Shown: piece after piece, positions 940-25,512 of the stretch
How the letters are laid out: the number at the start of each line of letters is the position of its first letter
Numbering within the stretch: position 1 is the first letter of the stretch
Assembly (NCBI GenBank): GCA_038064095.1
Contig: JBBTTT010000059.1
Span: 1-34,897, forward strand
DNA length: 34,897 nucleotides
From: Patescibacteria group bacterium
Lineage (GTDB): Bacteria > Patescibacteriota > Minisyncoccia > JACROR01
Reading direction: 5' to 3'
Notes under the pieces: generated by a model
What the model was told of the DNA's origin: nothing
Database searches by the model: none
The model's input: only the letters and a program-made list of their open reading frames with translations
Position numbers and translations under genes: made by a program

Positions 940-2049
940 ATGGAAAGAAAAATTGAAGTTCTTGGTTTTTACAATGGCCATCAATTATTAGATGGTGATG
1001 GTAAAAAAGCCGATTTGTTAAAAATAATTGAGCTTGCCGGAAGAACTTGTTATAAATCTTTTGATAAAATAACCGTTGATTCGGCAAAACAGTTTGTCCA
1101 TAAACTCTTGAGAGTTTATAAACATGAAAGCGTGATAGAACATTCTTGGTTTCCTTTATTTATAGACCTTACGGGATTGTTGTCTTGGGAAATTATTTTA
1201 GATATTTTGACTACGAATGGATTGTTTAAAGTTACAAAGAAAGAATCAGGGTGGCTGTTGAGCGGAAACGCAAGAATGTTTCGCGATTACATCCTAAAAA
1301 GTAAAAAAATATGGAAATATGACATCCGGGACAAGCTGAAAAATGAATATCCGGAACTTTTTCAGGATATTGATCATAACAATATGGATGGCGTTGTTGA
1401 GAATGACATTGAAAATGATTTTAAAACGCGCCGTCATATTAAAATATATCCTGATATTTCAGAATTCGCTTCACTTGATGAAAAATTAAAACACTGGTGG
1501 CTGGCGGTCCGCTTCAAAGGAGGATCACGGGCATTCACTCATCAACTAGTCAGGCATCGCCTTTGCGCGATTTCCCAGGAAAGCCAAAGATATTGCGACG
1601 AAGCTGGATTTTTTGACAATCAGTATTATGTAATTCCGGAATCCATCAAAGAATTAAAAAATACCAAATTGATGGATTTAATCGGGGACGGTGGTTTGGA
1701 AAATGATTTAACCTTGGAAGAATGGTATAAAACTAATTTGCTGCTTATGGACAGCTGGTACAGAAATCTGCAGAATTTTCTGAAAATGGCGAAAGAAAAA
1801 GGACTGGCAAAAATGAAAGTGAACGAAGACGCCAGATTTTTACTGCCCAACGCAGTTTGCAGCGAAATTGTTGTTTCCGCGAATCTTGAAGAATGGCGCC
1901 ATATCTTTAAAATGAGATGCGATCTTCACGCCCAGTGGGAAATCCGCGATTTTGCGATGATGGTTTTAAAAAAAGCCAAATCACTTTTCCCCGGCGTTTT
2001 TGACGATTTTTTAGAAAGCAAGGACGAAAAAAGCGCGTTTTCTATCTAA
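940..2049 (+). CDS. thyX: FAD-dependent thymidylate synthase ThyX, long form with an internal insertion
   Basis: It carries the ThyX signature SRAFTHQLVRHRLCAISQESQRY (RHR...S...SQRY) and the C-terminal NLEEWRHIFKMRCDLHAQWEIR motif. An AAGGAGG SD lies at 927-933, 6 nt before the ATG at 940. At 369 aa it is much longer than a typical ThyX of about 220-250 aa. Confidence 0.85.
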   Translation: MERKIEVLGFYNGHQLLDGDGKKADLLKIIELAGRTCYKSFDKITVDSAKQFVHKLLRVYKHESVIEHSWFPLFIDLTGLLSWEIILDILTTNGLFKVTKKESGWLLSGNARMFRDYILKSKKIWKYDIRDKLKNEYPELFQDIDHNNMDGVVENDIENDFKTRRHIKIYPDISEFASLDEKLKHWWLAVRFKGGSRAFTHQLVRHRLCAISQESQRYCDEAGFFDNQYYVIPESIKELKNTKLMDLIGDGGLENDLTLEEWYKTNLLLMDSWYRNLQNFLKMAKEKGLAKMKVNEDARFLLPNAVCSEIVVSANLEEWRHIFKMRCDLHAQWEIRDFAMMVLKKAKSLFPGVFDDFLESKDEKSAFSI

Positions 2050-4202: not shown

Positions 4203-6368
4203 TTATTCCTCCAATTTTTGGCTGATTGCCGATCTCGGACATTCTTGAGCGCAGATGCCGCAGCCCTTGCAATAGTCATAATTGATTTTCAGTTCTCCTT
4301 GTTTTTCGGAAACCGCCATATGAGGGCAGAATTTCCAGCAGTTTCCGCAAAAATCGCAAACGCCGCAGCTAAAACACCTTTTCGCTTCCGAACGCGACGC
4401 CGGTTCTCTTTTCTGATTTTTATTAAAATAAACCGGATTTAAATCGGAAAATTTAACTATTTGCGGATCTTTTGTTTCAAGAGGCGGTTCTCCCAAAAGA
4501 ATTTTCTCTATCTTCTCCGCGGCTTCTCTTCCTGAACCGATCGCCGCGGGAACCGTTCCCGCTTTTGTCTTTATATCTCCGCCCAAAAAAACTTTCCAAT
4601 CCTCCGATTCAACGAAAAACGAATTTTCCGCTTCTTCGCCGACCGCGACAATCAAATTGTCAAACTGCTCCAGAAAATTAGAACCTTCAATCGGTAAAGG
4701 GTTGTTTCTGCTTGATTCAGCTGATTTTCCGGGCTGATTTCTTTGACATTCAAGAAAATTTTGGCCGGATTTGCTGAAAATTCTGACCGGAGACAATAAT
4801 TCTCTGATTTCAATCCCTTCTTTTTCGGCTAAAATCACGTCTTCTTTGATTGCCGGCATTTCAATCTTGGTTCTTCGGTAAAAAATAGAGACCTCCGAAC
4901 CGAATCTTTTAGCGGTTCTGGCCGCGTCAATCGCCGTATTGCCGCCGCCGATAATCACAACCTTTTCCCCTAAAAAAGTTGAAGAAATTGCTTTATTGCC
5001 AAAATTGATGTTTTTAAGAAAATCCAAACCATAAAGGACATCGGGATTTTCCTCGCCTTCAATATTTAATTTTCTTGATTTTTGAAGGCCGGCCGCGAAA
5101 AAGACGGCGTCGTAATATCGTTTAATAGTTTCAAAAAATTTTTGGTCAACAAAAATGCCTTTGCAAACTTTAACTCCAAGATAGATAATGTTGTTGATTT
5201 CTTTTTCCAGAACATCTTTCGGCAAACGAAATTCCGGGATTCCGAATCGGAGCTGGCCGCCTAAAACAGGAAACTGTTCAAAAACAATAACCCGAAAATT
5301 TTTTCTGGCCAGTTGATAGGCGCAGGAAAGTCCGGCCGGGCCGGAACCTACGACGGCAATGTTAAAAGGTTTAAATTTTTTTTCTAAAACCGGCGGATGC
5401 CAACCGCGAGCCGAAGCCTCATCGCCCAAAAATTTCTCCAAATTCCTGATTGACACGGATTCGTCAAATTCATTTCGGTTGCAACTTTTCTCGCAAAAAG
5501 CCCGGCAAACCCGACCAGTAACGGCCGGGAAAGGATTTTTTTCCATCAATTTTTCCCAAGCCTGCCTGTTTTTTCCTTGTTTTAACAAAGAAAGCCAATA
5601 AGGAATATCATTTCCTAATGGGCAGGCATTTTGGCAGGGGGATGTTTTATTTTGGTAATAAGGCCTTATTTTTCTCCAGGCGCCGGTAAGATTCTTAGCG
5701 GTGCCGCTTAAAGAAATTACCGATCCGGGAAGTTCTTTAAAATCCTGAAAAATAATTCCGGCCGGCGGGATTTCCGTTTCCGTCAATTTGTCGGAAGCGG
5801 GAAATTCAATCATTTTAGCCCGCTCAAAAGATTCTTTCACGGCTTTAATGTTATTTCCTTTTTTTGGCAATTCGTCTGATTCTTCCGTTGCTTCAATAAT
5901 TGACTCAAGATTAAGAAGATTCGTGATTTTAGCAAAAACTCCCAACATAGCGGTCCCGACCGCCGGCAGAGCTTTCTGGCCCAAGCCGTATTTTTGGGTA
6001 ATAAAATCAACATCCGCGATTCCCGCCCGGCAACCCGCCAAACCGATCGGATATTTTAAATCTTGAACCGCGTTAAGAATAATTAATCCGCTCTCTCTTT
6101 TAAATCCTTCCAAAACGCGCGCCTGCTTAAAGCGAATCAGAGAAGCATCAAGAATTATAAGATAATCCGGAGCGTAAATTGCCGACCTTAAGATGATCGG
6201 ATTTTCGTCAACTCTCAAACCAACCAGAATCGGCGCCGATCTTCTTTCCGATTTGAATTCAGGCAAAACCAGGACATATTTCTTTTCTTTCCAAAAAGCA
6301 GAAGCTAAAATTCTGGCGGCGGTCAGCGCTCCCTGGCCGCCTCTTCCGTGAAATCTTATTTCTAACAT
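4203..6368 (-). CDS. Three-module fusion: PorG (gamma), GltD/SudA-like NAD(P)H-dependent FAD/Fe-S oxidoreductase, and PorD-like 2x[4Fe-4S] ferredoxin
   Basis: The N-terminus MLEIRFHGRGGQGALTAARILA is PorG-like. The middle has CQNACPLGNDIPYW...VTGRVCRAFCEKSCNR plus VAVVGSGPAGLSCAYQLARKNFRVIVFEQFPVLGGQLRFGIPEFRLPK (GltD-type Fe-S and dinucleotide folds) and a second GGGNTAIDAAR fold. The C-terminus has CFSCGVCDFCGNCWKFCP...YCKGCGICAQECP. The start is taken at the ATG at 6366-6368, with a GGAGG 10 nt upstream. Confidence 0.85.
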   Translation of the reverse strand: MLEIRFHGRGGQGALTAARILASAFWKEKKYVLVLPEFKSERRSAPILVGLRVDENPIILRSAIYAPDYLIILDASLIRFKQARVLEGFKRESGLIILNAVQDLKYPIGLAGCRAGIADVDFITQKYGLGQKALPAVGTAMLGVFAKITNLLNLESIIEATEESDELPKKGNNIKAVKESFERAKMIEFPASDKLTETEIPPAGIIFQDFKELPGSVISLSGTAKNLTGAWRKIRPYYQNKTSPCQNACPLGNDIPYWLSLLKQGKNRQAWEKLMEKNPFPAVTGRVCRAFCEKSCNRNEFDESVSIRNLEKFLGDEASARGWHPPVLEKKFKPFNIAVVGSGPAGLSCAYQLARKNFRVIVFEQFPVLGGQLRFGIPEFRLPKDVLEKEINNIIYLGVKVCKGIFVDQKFFETIKRYYDAVFFAAGLQKSRKLNIEGEENPDVLYGLDFLKNINFGNKAISSTFLGEKVVIIGGGNTAIDAARTAKRFGSEVSIFYRRTKIEMPAIKEDVILAEKEGIEIRELLSPVRIFSKSGQNFLECQRNQPGKSAESSRNNPLPIEGSNFLEQFDNLIVAVGEEAENSFFVESEDWKVFLGGDIKTKAGTVPAAIGSGREAAEKIEKILLGEPPLETKDPQIVKFSDLNPVYFNKNQKREPASRSEAKRCFSCGVCDFCGNCWKFCPHMAVSEKQGELKINYDYCKGCGICAQECPRSAISQKLEE

Positions 6369-13647: not shown

Positions 13648-13811
13648 TGAATTACGAAATGACCATTTTCGCGACCCGCAAGCCGCTCCCGCGACGGCTT
13701 GCTCTATCCTCGGCGATTTGCTTTTTTGGTTCGCTTCGCGGACATTTTAACCAAAAAAGCGCCAAGCAAATCGCCTGCGGACGGTCGCGAAAATGGTCAT
13801 TTCGTAATTCA
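13648..13811. repeat. 164-bp foldback element with 29-bp perfect terminal inverted repeats and internal sub-hairpins (MITE-like element or structured RNA)
   Basis: TGAATTACGAAATGACCATTTTCGCGACC (13648-13676) is the exact reverse complement of 13783-13811. Inner pairings are GGCGATTTGCTT (13712-23) with AAGCAAATCGCC (13764-75), TTTTTTGGTT with AACCAAAAAA, and a side hairpin AAGCCG/CGGCTT (13680-13700). It fills the spacer between two + strand genes. Confidence 0.85.
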
Positions 13812-14519: not shown

Positions 14520-15503
14520 TTATTTCTTTCTCCTTTTTCCGTGAAAAGCGGAATGGATTTCGCGAAGTTGTTTATCGGTGACATGAGTGTAAACTTGAGT
14601 CGTGGCGATATTGGCGTGGCCCAAAAGAGCCTGCACCGAACGCAAATCCGCGCCGTTGGACAACAAATCAGTGGCAAAAACATGCCGCAAAATATGGGGA
14701 GTGACTTTTCGGGAAATCCCGGCAGCAATGGCGCAATGCCGGACTAAACGCTCCACCGAGCGCGGAGTAAGGCGGGCCTCCGCCTCGCCGAAGTGGCTAC
14801 GGCCACGCAGGCGGGATTTCTCGGAAAGAGCGTCTTTTTTTTTGCCGCCCTCAACGCTCGCTCGCCGAAAATTTATGAAAAGAGCTTCTTCCAAATCGCC
14901 GCGCTTTTCCAAATAATTTTTAAGCGCCTGCCGCGCCCGGTCGGATAAAAACACCACCCGCACTTTTTCGCCCTTGCCGCGCACGGAAAATTCGCCTTTC
15001 GCCAAATTGATGGAATCTTTATTTAATCCGCAAAGCTCGGAAACCCGCAAGCCCGTGGAAAACAAAAGCTCTAAAATCGCTTTGTCGCGCAATCCTTTAA
15101 GCGAATCAACGACCGGCGATTCCAAAAGTCGCTCCAGTTCATTTTCATCAATTAAGTCCAGCTCCCGGCTGCCGGTTTTTGCCAATTCAATCCGTTCGGC
15201 CGGCAACGTCTCAATTCCGCGTTTAACCAGATATTTCAAAAAAACGCGCAAGCCGATCAAATAATAATTTTGAGTCTTCTTTTTTATCTCGCCCTCCGCG
15301 ACTTTTTGTCTGTTAAGCCAAAGACGATAACGGCGCACTAAATCATCGCTGATTTCCCGCGGCTCGTTGATTTTAGAAAAATTCAGAAAGCGCTTGAGAT
15401 AACGATCGTAATTTTCCACGGTCTTTAAACTCCGGCCTTTTTCAATTTCCAGATATTCCAAAAATTCTTTACGCAGAGATTGAATCCCGTCAAAAGTTTT
15501 CAT
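14520..15503 (-). CDS. xerC: Tyrosine recombinase XerC/XerD family, with a roughly 28-aa internal insert
   Basis: The N-terminal SAM-like domain has YLEIEKGRSLKTVENYDRYLKRF. The catalytic domain has GLRVSEL (Arg I), TPHILRHVFATDLLSNGADLRSVQALLGHANIATTQVYTHV (HxxR, His, Tyr). Confidence 0.9.
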   Translation of the reverse strand: MKTFDGIQSLRKEFLEYLEIEKGRSLKTVENYDRYLKRFLNFSKINEPREISDDLVRRYRLWLNRQKVAEGEIKKKTQNYYLIGLRVFLKYLVKRGIETLPAERIELAKTGSRELDLIDENELERLLESPVVDSLKGLRDKAILELLFSTGLRVSELCGLNKDSINLAKGEFSVRGKGEKVRVVFLSDRARQALKNYLEKRGDLEEALFINFRRASVEGGKKKDALSEKSRLRGRSHFGEAEARLTPRSVERLVRHCAIAAGISRKVTPHILRHVFATDLLSNGADLRSVQALLGHANIATTQVYTHVTDKQLREIHSAFHGKRRKK

Positions 15504-22646: not shown

Positions 22647-24656
22647 ATGCCGAAGAATACTCCAAAAAAAGAACCGTCAACGCCGATGAAAGGCGATTTT
22701 CCAACAGAACAGGTTGTCAAAGAACTGAACGAACGGCAAAAACAAGCGGTCTTGCACCAAGTTGGACCGCTTTTAATCTTAGCAGGCGCCGGCTCGGGAA
22801 AAACCAAAGTGATCGCCCATCGCATAGCCAACCTGATCAAAAACGGCGTCCAGCCGGAACAAATTCTGGCGATTACCTTTACCAACAAAGCGGCCGCTGA
22901 AATGCGCGAACGCATCATCAGGCTTCTCAACCCCAAAGGACGCCCCGAACTTCCTTTTATCAGCACCTTTCATTCTTTGGGCGTTTTTATTTTAAGAGAA
23001 AGCAGCAAGTCCTTGGGAATCAGCCGCAATTTTTCAATTTTTGACGAAGAAGATTCGCTAAGCCTTATCAAAGAATGCCTGAAAAAACTCTCTTTTGATC
23101 CGAAACAATTTCAACCCGCCAGAATTCAGGCGATAATTTCCAAAAACAAAAGCGAACTGGAAGAATTGAAAGAAGTCAGAGCAAAAGCGGACCGCTCGCC
23201 TTTTTTAAAAGCCGCGGCCGCGGTTTTTGAAAAATACGAAGAGGAGCTCGGCAAACACCGCGCGCTTGATTTTGACGACCTTATCGCCAAAACCGTTTCT
23301 CTTTTCAGCCGTTTCCCCGAAATTCTTAAGCAATACCAGGAAAAATGGCAATATATTCATATTGACGAATACCAGGACACCAATCACGCCCAGTATTGTT
23401 TAGCCAAACTCCTCGCCCGCACTGGCCAAAATATCTGCTGCGTGGGAGACGTTGATCAGGCGATTTACCAATGGCGGGGCGCGGATTTCCGCAATATCCT
23501 GAATTTTGAAAAAGACTGGCCTCAAGCCGCGGTTATCACGCTTGAAGAAAATTACCGCTCCACTCAAAACATTCTGGACGCCGCCAACGCGGTTATTTCC
23601 AAAAACCAGCTGCGAAAGCCGAAAAATTTGATTGGCCGCCAAGGCGCGGGTGAAAAAATAAAATTTTTTGCCGCGGCCAATGAACTGGAAGAAGCGGATT
23701 TTATCGCCCGCGCCAGCCAGAATCTGATCAGCCAAAAAATTCCGCCTCAAAAAATCGCCGTTCTTTTCCGCGCCAATTTTCAATCGCGCGTCCTGGAAGA
23801 AGCCTTTTCCCGCCGGCAAATTCCTTATCAGCTGATCGGCGTCAGATTTTATCAAAGAAAAGAAGTTAAAGACATTCTCGCTTATCTGCGCGCCGCCCTA
23901 AATCCTGAAAATCTTTTCAGCGTTAAAAGAATCATTAATGTTCCCGGCCGCGGAATCGGCAAAACATTGGCCGCTAAATATCTTGCTGCCGCGTCAGACG
24001 CGGCTGGCACAATAACAGCCCCGAAGCCCAATTTTAAGATTAAAGAAACCGGTCTTATTAAAAATTTTGAAAGCATTCTGGCTGGAATAAAAAAACAAGC
24101 GCTTGAAAATTCCGCTTCTCAAGCAATCCGCGCCTGCCTTGAAATAAGCGGCTATCGCGATTTTCTGAACGACAGCACCGAAGAAGGTTTGGCGCGGCTG
24201 GCTAACATTGAAGAACTGGCGAGTTCAGCTACAAAATATGACGGTTTCAAACCGCCCCAGGGAATAGAACGGCTTTTGGACGACGCCGCCTTGATGGCGG
24301 AACAGGACGCCATCAAAGACCGAAGCCAAAGCGTTAAATTGATGACGGTCCACAGCGCCAAAGGCCTGGAATTTGACGCGGTTTTCGTCAGCGGCCTGGA
24401 AGACGGCCTTTTTCCCCATTTTCTTTTGTCCGGCAAAGACCAGTTTCAAAAAGAAGAAGAACGCCGGCTTTTTTACGTGGCGCTGACCCGCGCCCGGGAA
24501 AATCTCTTTTTATCCTGCGCTTTTTTCCGCACCATCTTCGGCGCCAAGCAAGCGAATAAACCGTCTAAATTCTTGGAAGATATCCCAAAGGATCTGCTGG
24601 AATCGGTTAATCCAGAGGAAGAAACTTTGGAAAGCATTGATATTAAAGAATTATAA
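22647..24656 (+). CDS. pcrA: UvrD/PcrA superfamily-1 DNA helicase
   Basis: The motifs are LILAGAGSGKTKVIAHRIANLI (Walker A), ILAITFTNKAAAEMRERI, HIDEYQDTN, TVHSAKGLEFDAVFV and RRLFYVALTRAREN. The start is taken at the ATG at 22647. Confidence 0.9.
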   Translation: MPKNTPKKEPSTPMKGDFPTEQVVKELNERQKQAVLHQVGPLLILAGAGSGKTKVIAHRIANLIKNGVQPEQILAITFTNKAAAEMRERIIRLLNPKGRPELPFISTFHSLGVFILRESSKSLGISRNFSIFDEEDSLSLIKECLKKLSFDPKQFQPARIQAIISKNKSELEELKEVRAKADRSPFLKAAAAVFEKYEEELGKHRALDFDDLIAKTVSLFSRFPEILKQYQEKWQYIHIDEYQDTNHAQYCLAKLLARTGQNICCVGDVDQAIYQWRGADFRNILNFEKDWPQAAVITLEENYRSTQNILDAANAVISKNQLRKPKNLIGRQGAGEKIKFFAAANELEEADFIARASQNLISQKIPPQKIAVLFRANFQSRVLEEAFSRRQIPYQLIGVRFYQRKEVKDILAYLRAALNPENLFSVKRIINVPGRGIGKTLAAKYLAAASDAAGTITAPKPNFKIKETGLIKNFESILAGIKKQALENSASQAIRACLEISGYRDFLNDSTEEGLARLANIEELASSATKYDGFKPPQGIERLLDDAALMAEQDAIKDRSQSVKLMTVHSAKGLEFDAVFVSGLEDGLFPHFLLSGKDQFQKEEERRLFYVALTRARENLFLSCAFFRTIFGAKQANKPSKFLEDIPKDLLESVNPEEETLESIDIKEL

Positions 24657-24675: not shown

Positions 24676-25512
24676 ATGACAAAATTAGGCCAGCATTTCT
24701 TAAAATCCGAATCCATTGCCCGAAAAATCGTTGAAACCGCCGGTCTCGCGCCGGACGATCTTGTTTTGGAAATCGGCCCGGGCAAGGGCATCCTGACCGT
24801 TGAACTTCTCAAACGCGCCAAAAAAGTAGTGGCCGTAGAAAAAGACGGTTATTTGGTTGAATTTCTGAAGAAAAAATTTTCCTCCGAGCGCCGCGCCTCT
24901 AAATTGAAAATTATTCACGGGGATGCCTTAAAACTTAATCCTGAAAAACTAATGGAACCAAAAACCAATAAAGCTGATTACAAAATCGTTGCCAATCTTC
25001 CTTATTACATCACTTCGCGTTTTCTGCGCTTATTTTTAACTTCAAAATATCCGCCCAAAGAAATGACTTTAATGGTCCAAAAAGAAGTTGCCCAAAGAAT
25101 CGTCAGCCGACCGCCGAAAACAAACCTGCTGGCTCTTTCCGTCCAAATTTTCGGCCGGCCGAAAATCGCTTTTAAAGTTTCAAAGCAATATTTTTCTCCG
25201 GCGCCGAAAGTGGATTCCGCGGTTATTGCCATTACCGATATCTCCCGCGATTTTTTCATCAAAAACAACATTGAAGAAAAAGAATTTTTTACGCTCGTTA
25301 AAGCCGGTTTTTCTCAAAAACGCAAATTTTTAATCAATAATCTCGCTAATCCCATAAGTGAGACCTATGTAAAATACATAGGTCTCACTTATGGGAAAAA
25401 AGAATGGCGGGAAACTTTTAAAAAATGCGGGATTCCGGAAAAATCCCGGCCGGAAAATCTTTCACTGGAAAACTGGGTTTGTCTTTATAAAAAAAACGGG
25501 GAATGTAAATAA
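24676..25512 (+). CDS. rsmA: 16S rRNA (adenine1518/1519-N6)-dimethyltransferase RsmA/KsgA
   Basis: The motifs are LGQHFL, VLEIGPGKGILT (SAM-binding), IVANLPYYITS and FSQKRKFLINNL. The start is taken at the ATG at 24676 (MTKLGQHFL). Confidence 0.9.
   Translation: MTKLGQHFLKSESIARKIVETAGLAPDDLVLEIGPGKGILTVELLKRAKKVVAVEKDGYLVEFLKKKFSSERRASKLKIIHGDALKLNPEKLMEPKTNKADYKIVANLPYYITSRFLRLFLTSKYPPKEMTLMVQKEVAQRIVSRPPKTNLLALSVQIFGRPKIAFKVSKQYFSPAPKVDSAVIAITDISRDFFIKNNIEEKEFFTLVKAGFSQKRKFLINNLANPISETYVKYIGLTYGKKEWRETFKKCGIPEKSRPENLSLENWVCLYKKNGECK
25351..25395. repeat. Perfect 45-bp palindrome (21-bp stem, 3-nt loop) embedded in frame in rsmA
   Basis: CCCATAAGTGAGACCTATGTA-aaa-TACATAGGTCTCACTTATGGG was read directly. 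It is 15 codons long and encodes PISETYVKYIGLTYG in the variable linker of the RsmA C-terminal domain. Confidence 0.9.

Follow-up and report, generated by a model that had tools for sequence, protein, structure and literature searches.

The rsmA gene in the window (the whole stretch of 34,897 nucleotides that was analysed) carries a perfect palindrome, which we interpret as a REP doublet, i.e., a minimal REPIN-like element made of two inverted 21-nt repeats and tolerated in a variable linker of the encoded protein; we put the probability of this reading at about 0.8. Our confidence is high as to the membership of the palindrome in a family of REP doublets and moderate as to its arrival through the action of a transposase. 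In-frame REP doublets are known as a kind from other bacteria, but are apparently undescribed in this host group, and the present one is unusually small and resides in rsmA. Full-text searches, together with a term search within PMC6006769, retrieved no paper in which REP/RAYT elements are connected with Patescibacteria or with the candidate phyla radiation.

The palindrome in rsmA

The host gene encodes the 16S rRNA adenine dimethyltransferase RsmA (KsgA); an in-frame TTG further upstream, at 24637, would yield a protein of 291 aa (coordinates of all features are given in Table 1). The protein matches PF00398 with E 1.5e-56 (191.9 bits), and its closest solved structures are those of KsgA from B. 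subtilis (6ifs/7v2l, E 3e-40). The stretch 25351-25395 reads CCCATAAGTGAGACCTATGTA-AAA-TACATAGGTCTCACTTATGGG and encodes PISETYVKYIGLTYG, which corresponds to residues 226-240. The first-pass annotation had described it as a perfect 45-bp palindrome of 15 codons lying in frame within the gene; this description is exact, and complementarity even extends by one base on each side, so that the arms measure 22 bp.

The minimum-energy fold turns the palindrome into a long hairpin in RNA and DNA alike, with -52.4 kcal/mol (z = -12.6) for the RNA of a 111-nt context and -23.8 kcal/mol (z = -14.9) for the DNA of a 57-nt context, and in neither case was any of 200 shuffles as good. The palindrome is thus far outside chance expectation. 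No perfect hairpin in the genome (525,692 bp in 77 contigs) is longer, and most of the other top hairpins consist of an A run, a GC-rich stem and a T run, which is the shape of a terminator. The element can be read through without a stop codon in just two of six frames, one per strand. The insert probably survived because it comprises a whole number of codons and because it sits in each strand's only stop-free frame. Translational bypass of the hairpin was also considered and is unnecessary, as the reading frame is open.

Table 1 Positions of rsmA, the palindrome and related hairpin elements
Feature	Sequence	Position	Strand	Remarks
rsmA/ksgA, 16S rRNA adenine dimethyltransferase	window	24676..25512	+	278 aa from ATG; PF00398 RrnaAD
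rsmA palindrome, REP doublet (REPIN-like long hairpin)	window	25350..25396	.	22-bp perfect arms, 3-nt spacer
Left REP unit of palindrome	window	25351..25371	+	CCCATAAGT-GAG-ACCTATGTA
AAA spacer of palindrome	window	25372..25374	.	loop of long hairpin
Right REP unit of palindrome	window	25375..25395	-	exact reverse complement of left unit
Single family copy	G000 (genome of the window), C35	4706-4726		found by looser search
Single family copy	G000, C51	1228-1248		19/21 positions match rsmA arm; whole-genome search
Single family copy	G000, C68	7835-7855		found by looser search
Inverted doublets	G002, C6	5132-5173 and 5877-5916		CCCATAAGTCTCACTTATGTA followed by TACATAAGTGAGACTTATGGG; flank ORF 5216-5869 (217 aa)
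In-frame doublet in prepilin peptidase	L147, Parcubacteria CG10_big_fil_rev_8_21_14_0_10_38_31	1734-1776		PF06750 + PF01478
Hairpin of a different REP family, in frame in rsmA linker of P0006	L161, ENA ERZ4903125	~1039-1063		AACTTGGAGGC-TTA-GCCTCCAAGTT

Comparison with homologues identifies the palindrome as an insertion. The four nearest RsmA orthologues (72-78% identity) have a linker of 11 residues, NNL-(GAELP/GAESS/ETQSP/GIQLP)-(S/N)KEK(W/R)(R/Q), versus 22 residues here, NNL-ANPI-S-ETYVKYIGLTYG-KKEWR, and the inserted residues are shared by none of the 119 homologues compared. Ordinary coding constraint is therefore ruled out as the origin, in agreement with the first-pass annotation, which had favoured an insertion. 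No other part of the RsmA family varies as much in length as the linker: counted from NNL to FKKCG, it comprises 0-25 residues in 120 homologues, with a mode of 6, and 24 residues in this protein.

Equally long linkers, of 25 and 24 residues, were seen in the homologues P0007 (L160) and P0025 (L162). No perfect stem of at least 6 bp was detected in the DNA of either, and the linker therefore grows by other routes too.

In the AlphaFold2 model of the protein (mean pLDDT 92.5) the insert is placed between two confident helices of the C-domain and forms the least confident part of the molecule, the two 10-residue blocks around it (residues 221-240) having pLDDT values of 82 and 68 as compared with 95-98 in the neighbouring blocks. 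The model predicts that the RrnaAD methyltransferase fold is intact despite the insert.

The net gain in comparison with the closest orthologues is 33 nt and not 45, and the left foot of the palindrome, CCC ATA AGT, resembles the ancestral CCA AGT of the orthologues. For these two reasons a simple cut-and-insert of a 45-nt unit does not follow from the length comparison. The first-pass annotation had noted that deletion of the palindrome keeps the frame and gives a linker as short as that of E. coli. Its removal, which joins ...GCTAAT to AAAAAAGAATGG, does keep the frame and leaves NNL-AN-KKEWR, but this product is four residues shorter than the linker of the nearest orthologues, so an exact excision is doubtful.

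Support across independent assemblies

The identical 278-aa RsmA is recorded on 11 contigs, of which six were examined: three from ENA assemblies of Hainich groundwater and three from Logan assemblies of different runs. All six contain the identical 47-mer in mid-contig, with flanks continuing normally and the frame kept. The flanks differ by 0-2 SNPs across up to 6.8 kb, and the contigs sampled with the palindrome represent a single near-clonal population, among which no empty-site rsmA allele at high identity was found. The palindrome is real and confirmed at the assembly level.

Artefacts are known to take the form of perfect palindromes with a short loop, and a palindromic chimera produced by the assembler or in library preparation was weighed for this reason. 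We give it next to no probability, since the element recurs letter for letter in six contigs that differ in sample, year and assembler, and since its arms belong to a repeat family that is present in other genomes.

A family of hairpin repeats

The search for other copies of the arm proposed in the first-pass annotation, when run on the whole genome, yielded three single units. The family consensus is a 21-nt hairpin, TACATAAGT-GAG-ACTTATGTA, in which a 9-bp stem closes a 3-nt loop. The three single copies each have one mismatch from it, and about 1e-5 such matches are expected by chance. The left unit of the rsmA palindrome differs from the consensus at three positions; both arms are identical, including these three departures from the single-unit consensus of the genome. 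As each arm is a unit of the 21-nt hairpin family, the palindrome is an inverted doublet, and the family in this genome is tiny, with three single units and one doublet.

All three single copies occupy short spacers that separate co-directional genes, namely metG-tatD, a DD-carboxypeptidase-like gene and mraY, and mreB-holB. The upstream DD-carboxypeptidase-like ORF takes its TGA stop from the unit on C51, and 7 nt separate the end of this unit from the start codon of mraY.

An exact scan of genome contigs for variants of the arm gave no match outside the genome of the window. Exact copies of the consensus were found, among 40 related genomes searched, in two genomes of the sister genus, G002, which comes from the same Hainich well H32, and G003, a Niyogibacteria MAG (NC_groundwater). 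Hairpins of the form CATARGT-NNN-ACYTATG number 5 in the genome of the window (G000), 0 in its congener (G001), 7 in G002, 19 in G003 and 17 in G012, the control with a reversed pattern giving 0-1. The core 17-mer is multi-copy in only two Patescibacteria genomes among 185,579 species. About 37 of 40 family copies in relatives are extragenic, whereas the rsmA copy is intragenic. Single units of G002 and G003 read CTAC...GTAG with the tag base-paired, whereas the copies of G000 end in TGTA followed by T/A, not G. Stem position 5/13 keeps Watson-Crick pairing in 79 of 85 distinct units, switching between A-T and G-C, and the outer CC/GG ends are able to pair only across a doublet. The hairpin family is common to Candidatus Niyogibacteria-like Parcubacteria, a family of groundwater Patescibacteria; the genome of the window is placed in this lineage by the names of the organisms from which its nearest proteins and related genomes come.

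The same genome contains a second family of hairpin repeats, TTGAATTACGAAA-N5-7-TTTCGTAATTCAA, with TGAATTACGAA in 14 copies genome-wide. Its sites lie at 486-496 and 13648-13811 in the window and at C31:10011-10039, C49:2833-2859 and C77:1178-1204 of G000, and its copies include the 29-nt arms of a 164-bp foldback of the window as well as three compact hairpins on other contigs. The gene for a Xer recombinase (window 14701-14870) has an in-frame insert containing a hairpin; short-word BLAST detected no other copy of this insert in the genome, which places it in neither repeat family.

Doublets and in-frame insertions in other organisms

A search with the doublet pattern identified the same build in 12 metagenome contigs and five genome contigs, the latter belonging to a Parcubacteria CG10 MAG, Candidatus Lloydbacteria and G002. 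The outer ends are CC/GG or TA, the inner ends TGTA/TACA, and the spacer has 0-3 nt of A/T (AAA/TTT, AA/TT or A/T, for example, in other Parcubacteria). The Lloydbacteria doublet shares the hybrid stem of the rsmA copy, with AAGT in the outer and ACCT in the inner part, and doublets outside rsmA are perfect in noncoding DNA as well. Because the same build recurs in 17 contigs and flanks a transposase gene in G002, the doublet is a propagated unit.

Two further hairpins lie in frame within protein-coding genes. The doublet in a prepilin peptidase gene of a Parcubacteria genome, found also in three metagenome contigs (L135, L139 and L143), reads ...PIGETYV(L/I)HRSHLW..., and its centre base is A or T depending on the contig. 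Its first arm and the rsmA copy share one reading frame, PI(G/S)ETYV, and the orthologue in G009 (78% identical) is six residues shorter at this site. The other hairpin, which encodes part of KTWRLSLQVEK, lies in the rsmA linker of P0006, from a related species (65-68% identical); close variants of it cluster around Y1 transposase matches in G003:C2 and G004:C25. The rsmA linker appears to have been struck independently by two repeat families, and the prepilin peptidase represents a third event. Each of the three genes gained less than the length of its element, and each hairpin has a foot that resembles ancestral codons. Chance, insertion accompanied by a deletion, a target guided by similarity, and template switching in situ could each lie behind this pattern and cannot be told apart here.

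These features bear on an origin in situ, according to which a REP unit or REP-like sequence of the linker became a perfect doublet by intrastrand template switching (foldback) in replication and no ready-made doublet moved. The identity of the arms down to their three shared departures from the consensus would agree with such an event, and so would the net gain of 33 nt, the left foot resembling ancestral codons and the partial ancestral overlap that recurs in prepilin peptidase and the rsmA of P0006. However, the recurrence of the doublet build, its position next to the G002 transposase gene and the hybrid stem shared with the Lloydbacteria contig argue against it, and the ancestral resemblance, which amounts to 6-14 nt of loops that have diverged, may be fortuitous. 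We regard an origin in situ as unlikely. A unique local foldback, which the first-pass annotation had listed among its explanations, is not favoured either, as doublets of this build are found in other organisms too.

Association with Y1 transposase genes

The ORF flanked by inverted doublets in G002 has a counterpart in G003:C21, where the same doublet layout surrounds an ORF of 224 aa. The flanked ORFs score 29.8-34.2 bits against PF01797 Y1_Tnp (IS200-like; cut-off 23), and their best NCBIfam model is NF047646, the REP-associated tyrosine transposase, with 36-43 bits, which is far below the cut-off of 80. The motifs H-x-H and Y-I-x-x-N-P are invariant in an alignment of 11 such ORFs. The best solved match to the profile of these 11 ORFs is TnpA-REP from E. 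coli (4er8, E 0.002), with HUH and Y-x-x-x-NP motifs aligned, ranking ahead of 2xm3, 2xma and 2xo6, which are named only 'transposase'; 4er8 was reached by the profile alone, as a PDB search with the single sequence of the G002 transposase gave no match. By family model and by structure, REP-associated (RAYT) tyrosine transposases of the Y1/HUH class are thus the best match of the genes in G002 and G003, which single units as well as doublets of the hairpin directly adjoin. The suggestion that the palindrome may be a target of a nuclease or recombinase can be upheld in the sense that its repeat unit is of a type flanking Y1/HUH transposase genes.

Matches to the Y1 transposase family (1-8 per genome) occur in eight of 13 genomes of the class. 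At most inspected Y1 loci (L089-L106) a 3-nt-loop hairpin family of its own adjoins the gene, often on both sides. RAYTs are usually described as single-copy genes. The family is multi-copy in genomes of ~0.6-1.0 Mb, with eight matches in G009, six in G003, six in G012 and three in G002.

Neither tblastn (E > 0.3) nor the PF01797 HMM detected a Y1 transposase gene in the genome of the window or its congener; the former assembly is 93.8% complete in 77 contigs, and a Y1 gene could sit in the missing ~6%. Since neither genome has a detectable Y1 gene, the rsmA copy is most likely a stranded, non-autonomous element and not an active one.

Presence and absence of units between congeners

The sites of the three single units could be located in the congener, where their flanks are 78-82% identical. 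The mreB-holB spacer of the congener is without the 28 nt that hold the repeat (flanks 82% identical), and the other two spacers hold unrelated palindromic elements instead of the REP units. These differences make the REP units variably present insertions and not conserved regulatory motifs. A conserved operator or regulatory motif was rejected as an explanation of the single units, given their absence from the orthologous sites of the congener and the copies of relatives flanking transposase genes.

The replacement elements lie at G001:C1 ~52,000 and G001:C3 ~49,600-49,800 (L128 and L129). The one before mraY is a 19-bp imperfect hairpin, and the one between metG and tatD is an insert of ~150 nt bounded by inverted repeats of ~21 nt (AATACTCCCAAATTGCTTTT...).

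The hairpin might also have a function at rsmA, either by forming a structure in the mRNA that reduces or times expression (a 22-bp substrate of the RNase III type, or a pause of the ribosome) or by providing RsmA with a new surface. Such a role would fit the flawless stem, to be compared with one mismatch in each of the three intergenic single units, the very stable RNA stem, and the identity of the protein on 11/11 contigs and of the DNA in 6/6 examined. Fixation in a near-clonal sample says little, however, and doublets elsewhere are perfect in noncoding DNA too. An unrelated REP in the same linker of another species and the range of 0-25 residues among homologues point to tolerance, and the insert coincides with the least confident part of the AlphaFold2 model. 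We therefore consider a functional hairpin very improbable.

Proposed route of insertion and its implications

By analogy with IS200/IS605 and TnpA-REP (PMC3479197, PMC6006769), a REP doublet would have been moved by a Y1 enzyme that recognises the hairpin on single-stranded DNA, cuts at its foot and rejoins it elsewhere; the movement of hairpins in this way would need no terminal duplications. In this model a doublet, or a single unit that became one, would have landed in the linker of the C-terminal domain of RsmA, where it would add a short, poorly ordered loop and leave the methyltransferase fold intact. Membership in the family, the link to transposase genes in relatives, the absence from orthologues and the differences between congeners are shown, and from these we infer mobilisation by the transposase, the neutrality of the insert and the timing of its arrival.

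In a broader scenario, Patescibacteria with active multi-copy Y1/hairpin systems would repeatedly remodel the surface loops of essential proteins, as 21-nt units and 45-nt doublets enter foot-like coding targets or grow by template switching. We offer this tentatively and rate it as rather doubtful.

The REP doublet accounts for a striking oddity of sequence in an ordinary housekeeping gene. Hairpin repeats of the REP/RAYT type persist even in genomes of ~0.5-0.7 Mb, from which selfish DNA is assumed to have been lost, and the sister genomes have several transposase genes, each with a hairpin family of its own. For annotation, in-frame hairpins should be treated as repeat insertions and not as lineage-specific features of proteins. 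The recurrent insertions into the rsmA linker represent a small natural experiment on the tolerance of an essential ribosome-biogenesis enzyme to insertion.

Comparison with known systems

Quasipalindrome correction, or foldback by template switching, makes perfect inverted repeats locally and could explain a net gain smaller than the element, but it gives no account of a unit common to several genomes or of the association with a transposase.

Rickettsia palindromic elements, to which the palindrome had been likened in the first-pass annotation, are the right kind of analogy: they, too, are repeats of palindromic form that lie in frame within the genes of conserved proteins, to which they add peptide segments at the surface. 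They differ in having Rickettsia as hosts and in showing no sequence relationship with the present element, which resembles them in function alone. The RPE-1 elements also far exceed the rsmA element in length. RPE-4 and RPE-6 have been equated with REPs of the CGTC type (PMC3733652). The latter have no associated transposase, unlike the family of the rsmA element, which flanks Y1 genes in relatives.

For Proteobacteria, REP doublets are well documented as mobile units, along with the transposases that belong to them (PMC3116915, PMC3337134). The REPIN/RAYT systems of Pseudomonas fluorescens and E. coli TnpA-REP (PMC3116915, PMC3337134, PMC3479197) share with the present case the architecture of two inverted short palindromic units forming one long hairpin, units of relatives that flank a Y1/HUH gene, single units situated mostly between co-directional genes, and co-variation of paired positions. 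In contrast to them, the rsmA element, at 45-47 nt and with a spacer of 3 nt, is far smaller and has AT-rich stems, and there are 5-19 units per genome here instead of hundreds. Relatives have 3-8 transposase matches and not one, and the genome of the window has none. Finally, the rsmA copy is inside a gene, whereas REPs are extragenic, with intragenic ones as documented exceptions.

The closest parallel to the in-frame position is provided by these exceptions. REP units are described as having, at one of their ends, a conserved GTAG or CGTC tag that stays unpaired, and intragenic REP dimers have been found to encode 20-30 residues, with REP ends supplying stop codons (PMC3733652). The intragenic GTAG/CGTC dimers of Di Nocera et al. 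2013 (PMC3733652) include those of 'O. terrae', with spacers of 1-2 bp, and inserts in uvrA. In comparison with these, the rsmA insert is shorter (15 aa vs 20-30), has no evident unpaired tag, and occurs in another phylum and in another target, rsmA. Like the rsmA doublet, the intragenic dimers are wholly contained in the ORFs of known proteins, where they presumably form part of loops or linkers, and their supply of stop codons is matched by the copy on C51.
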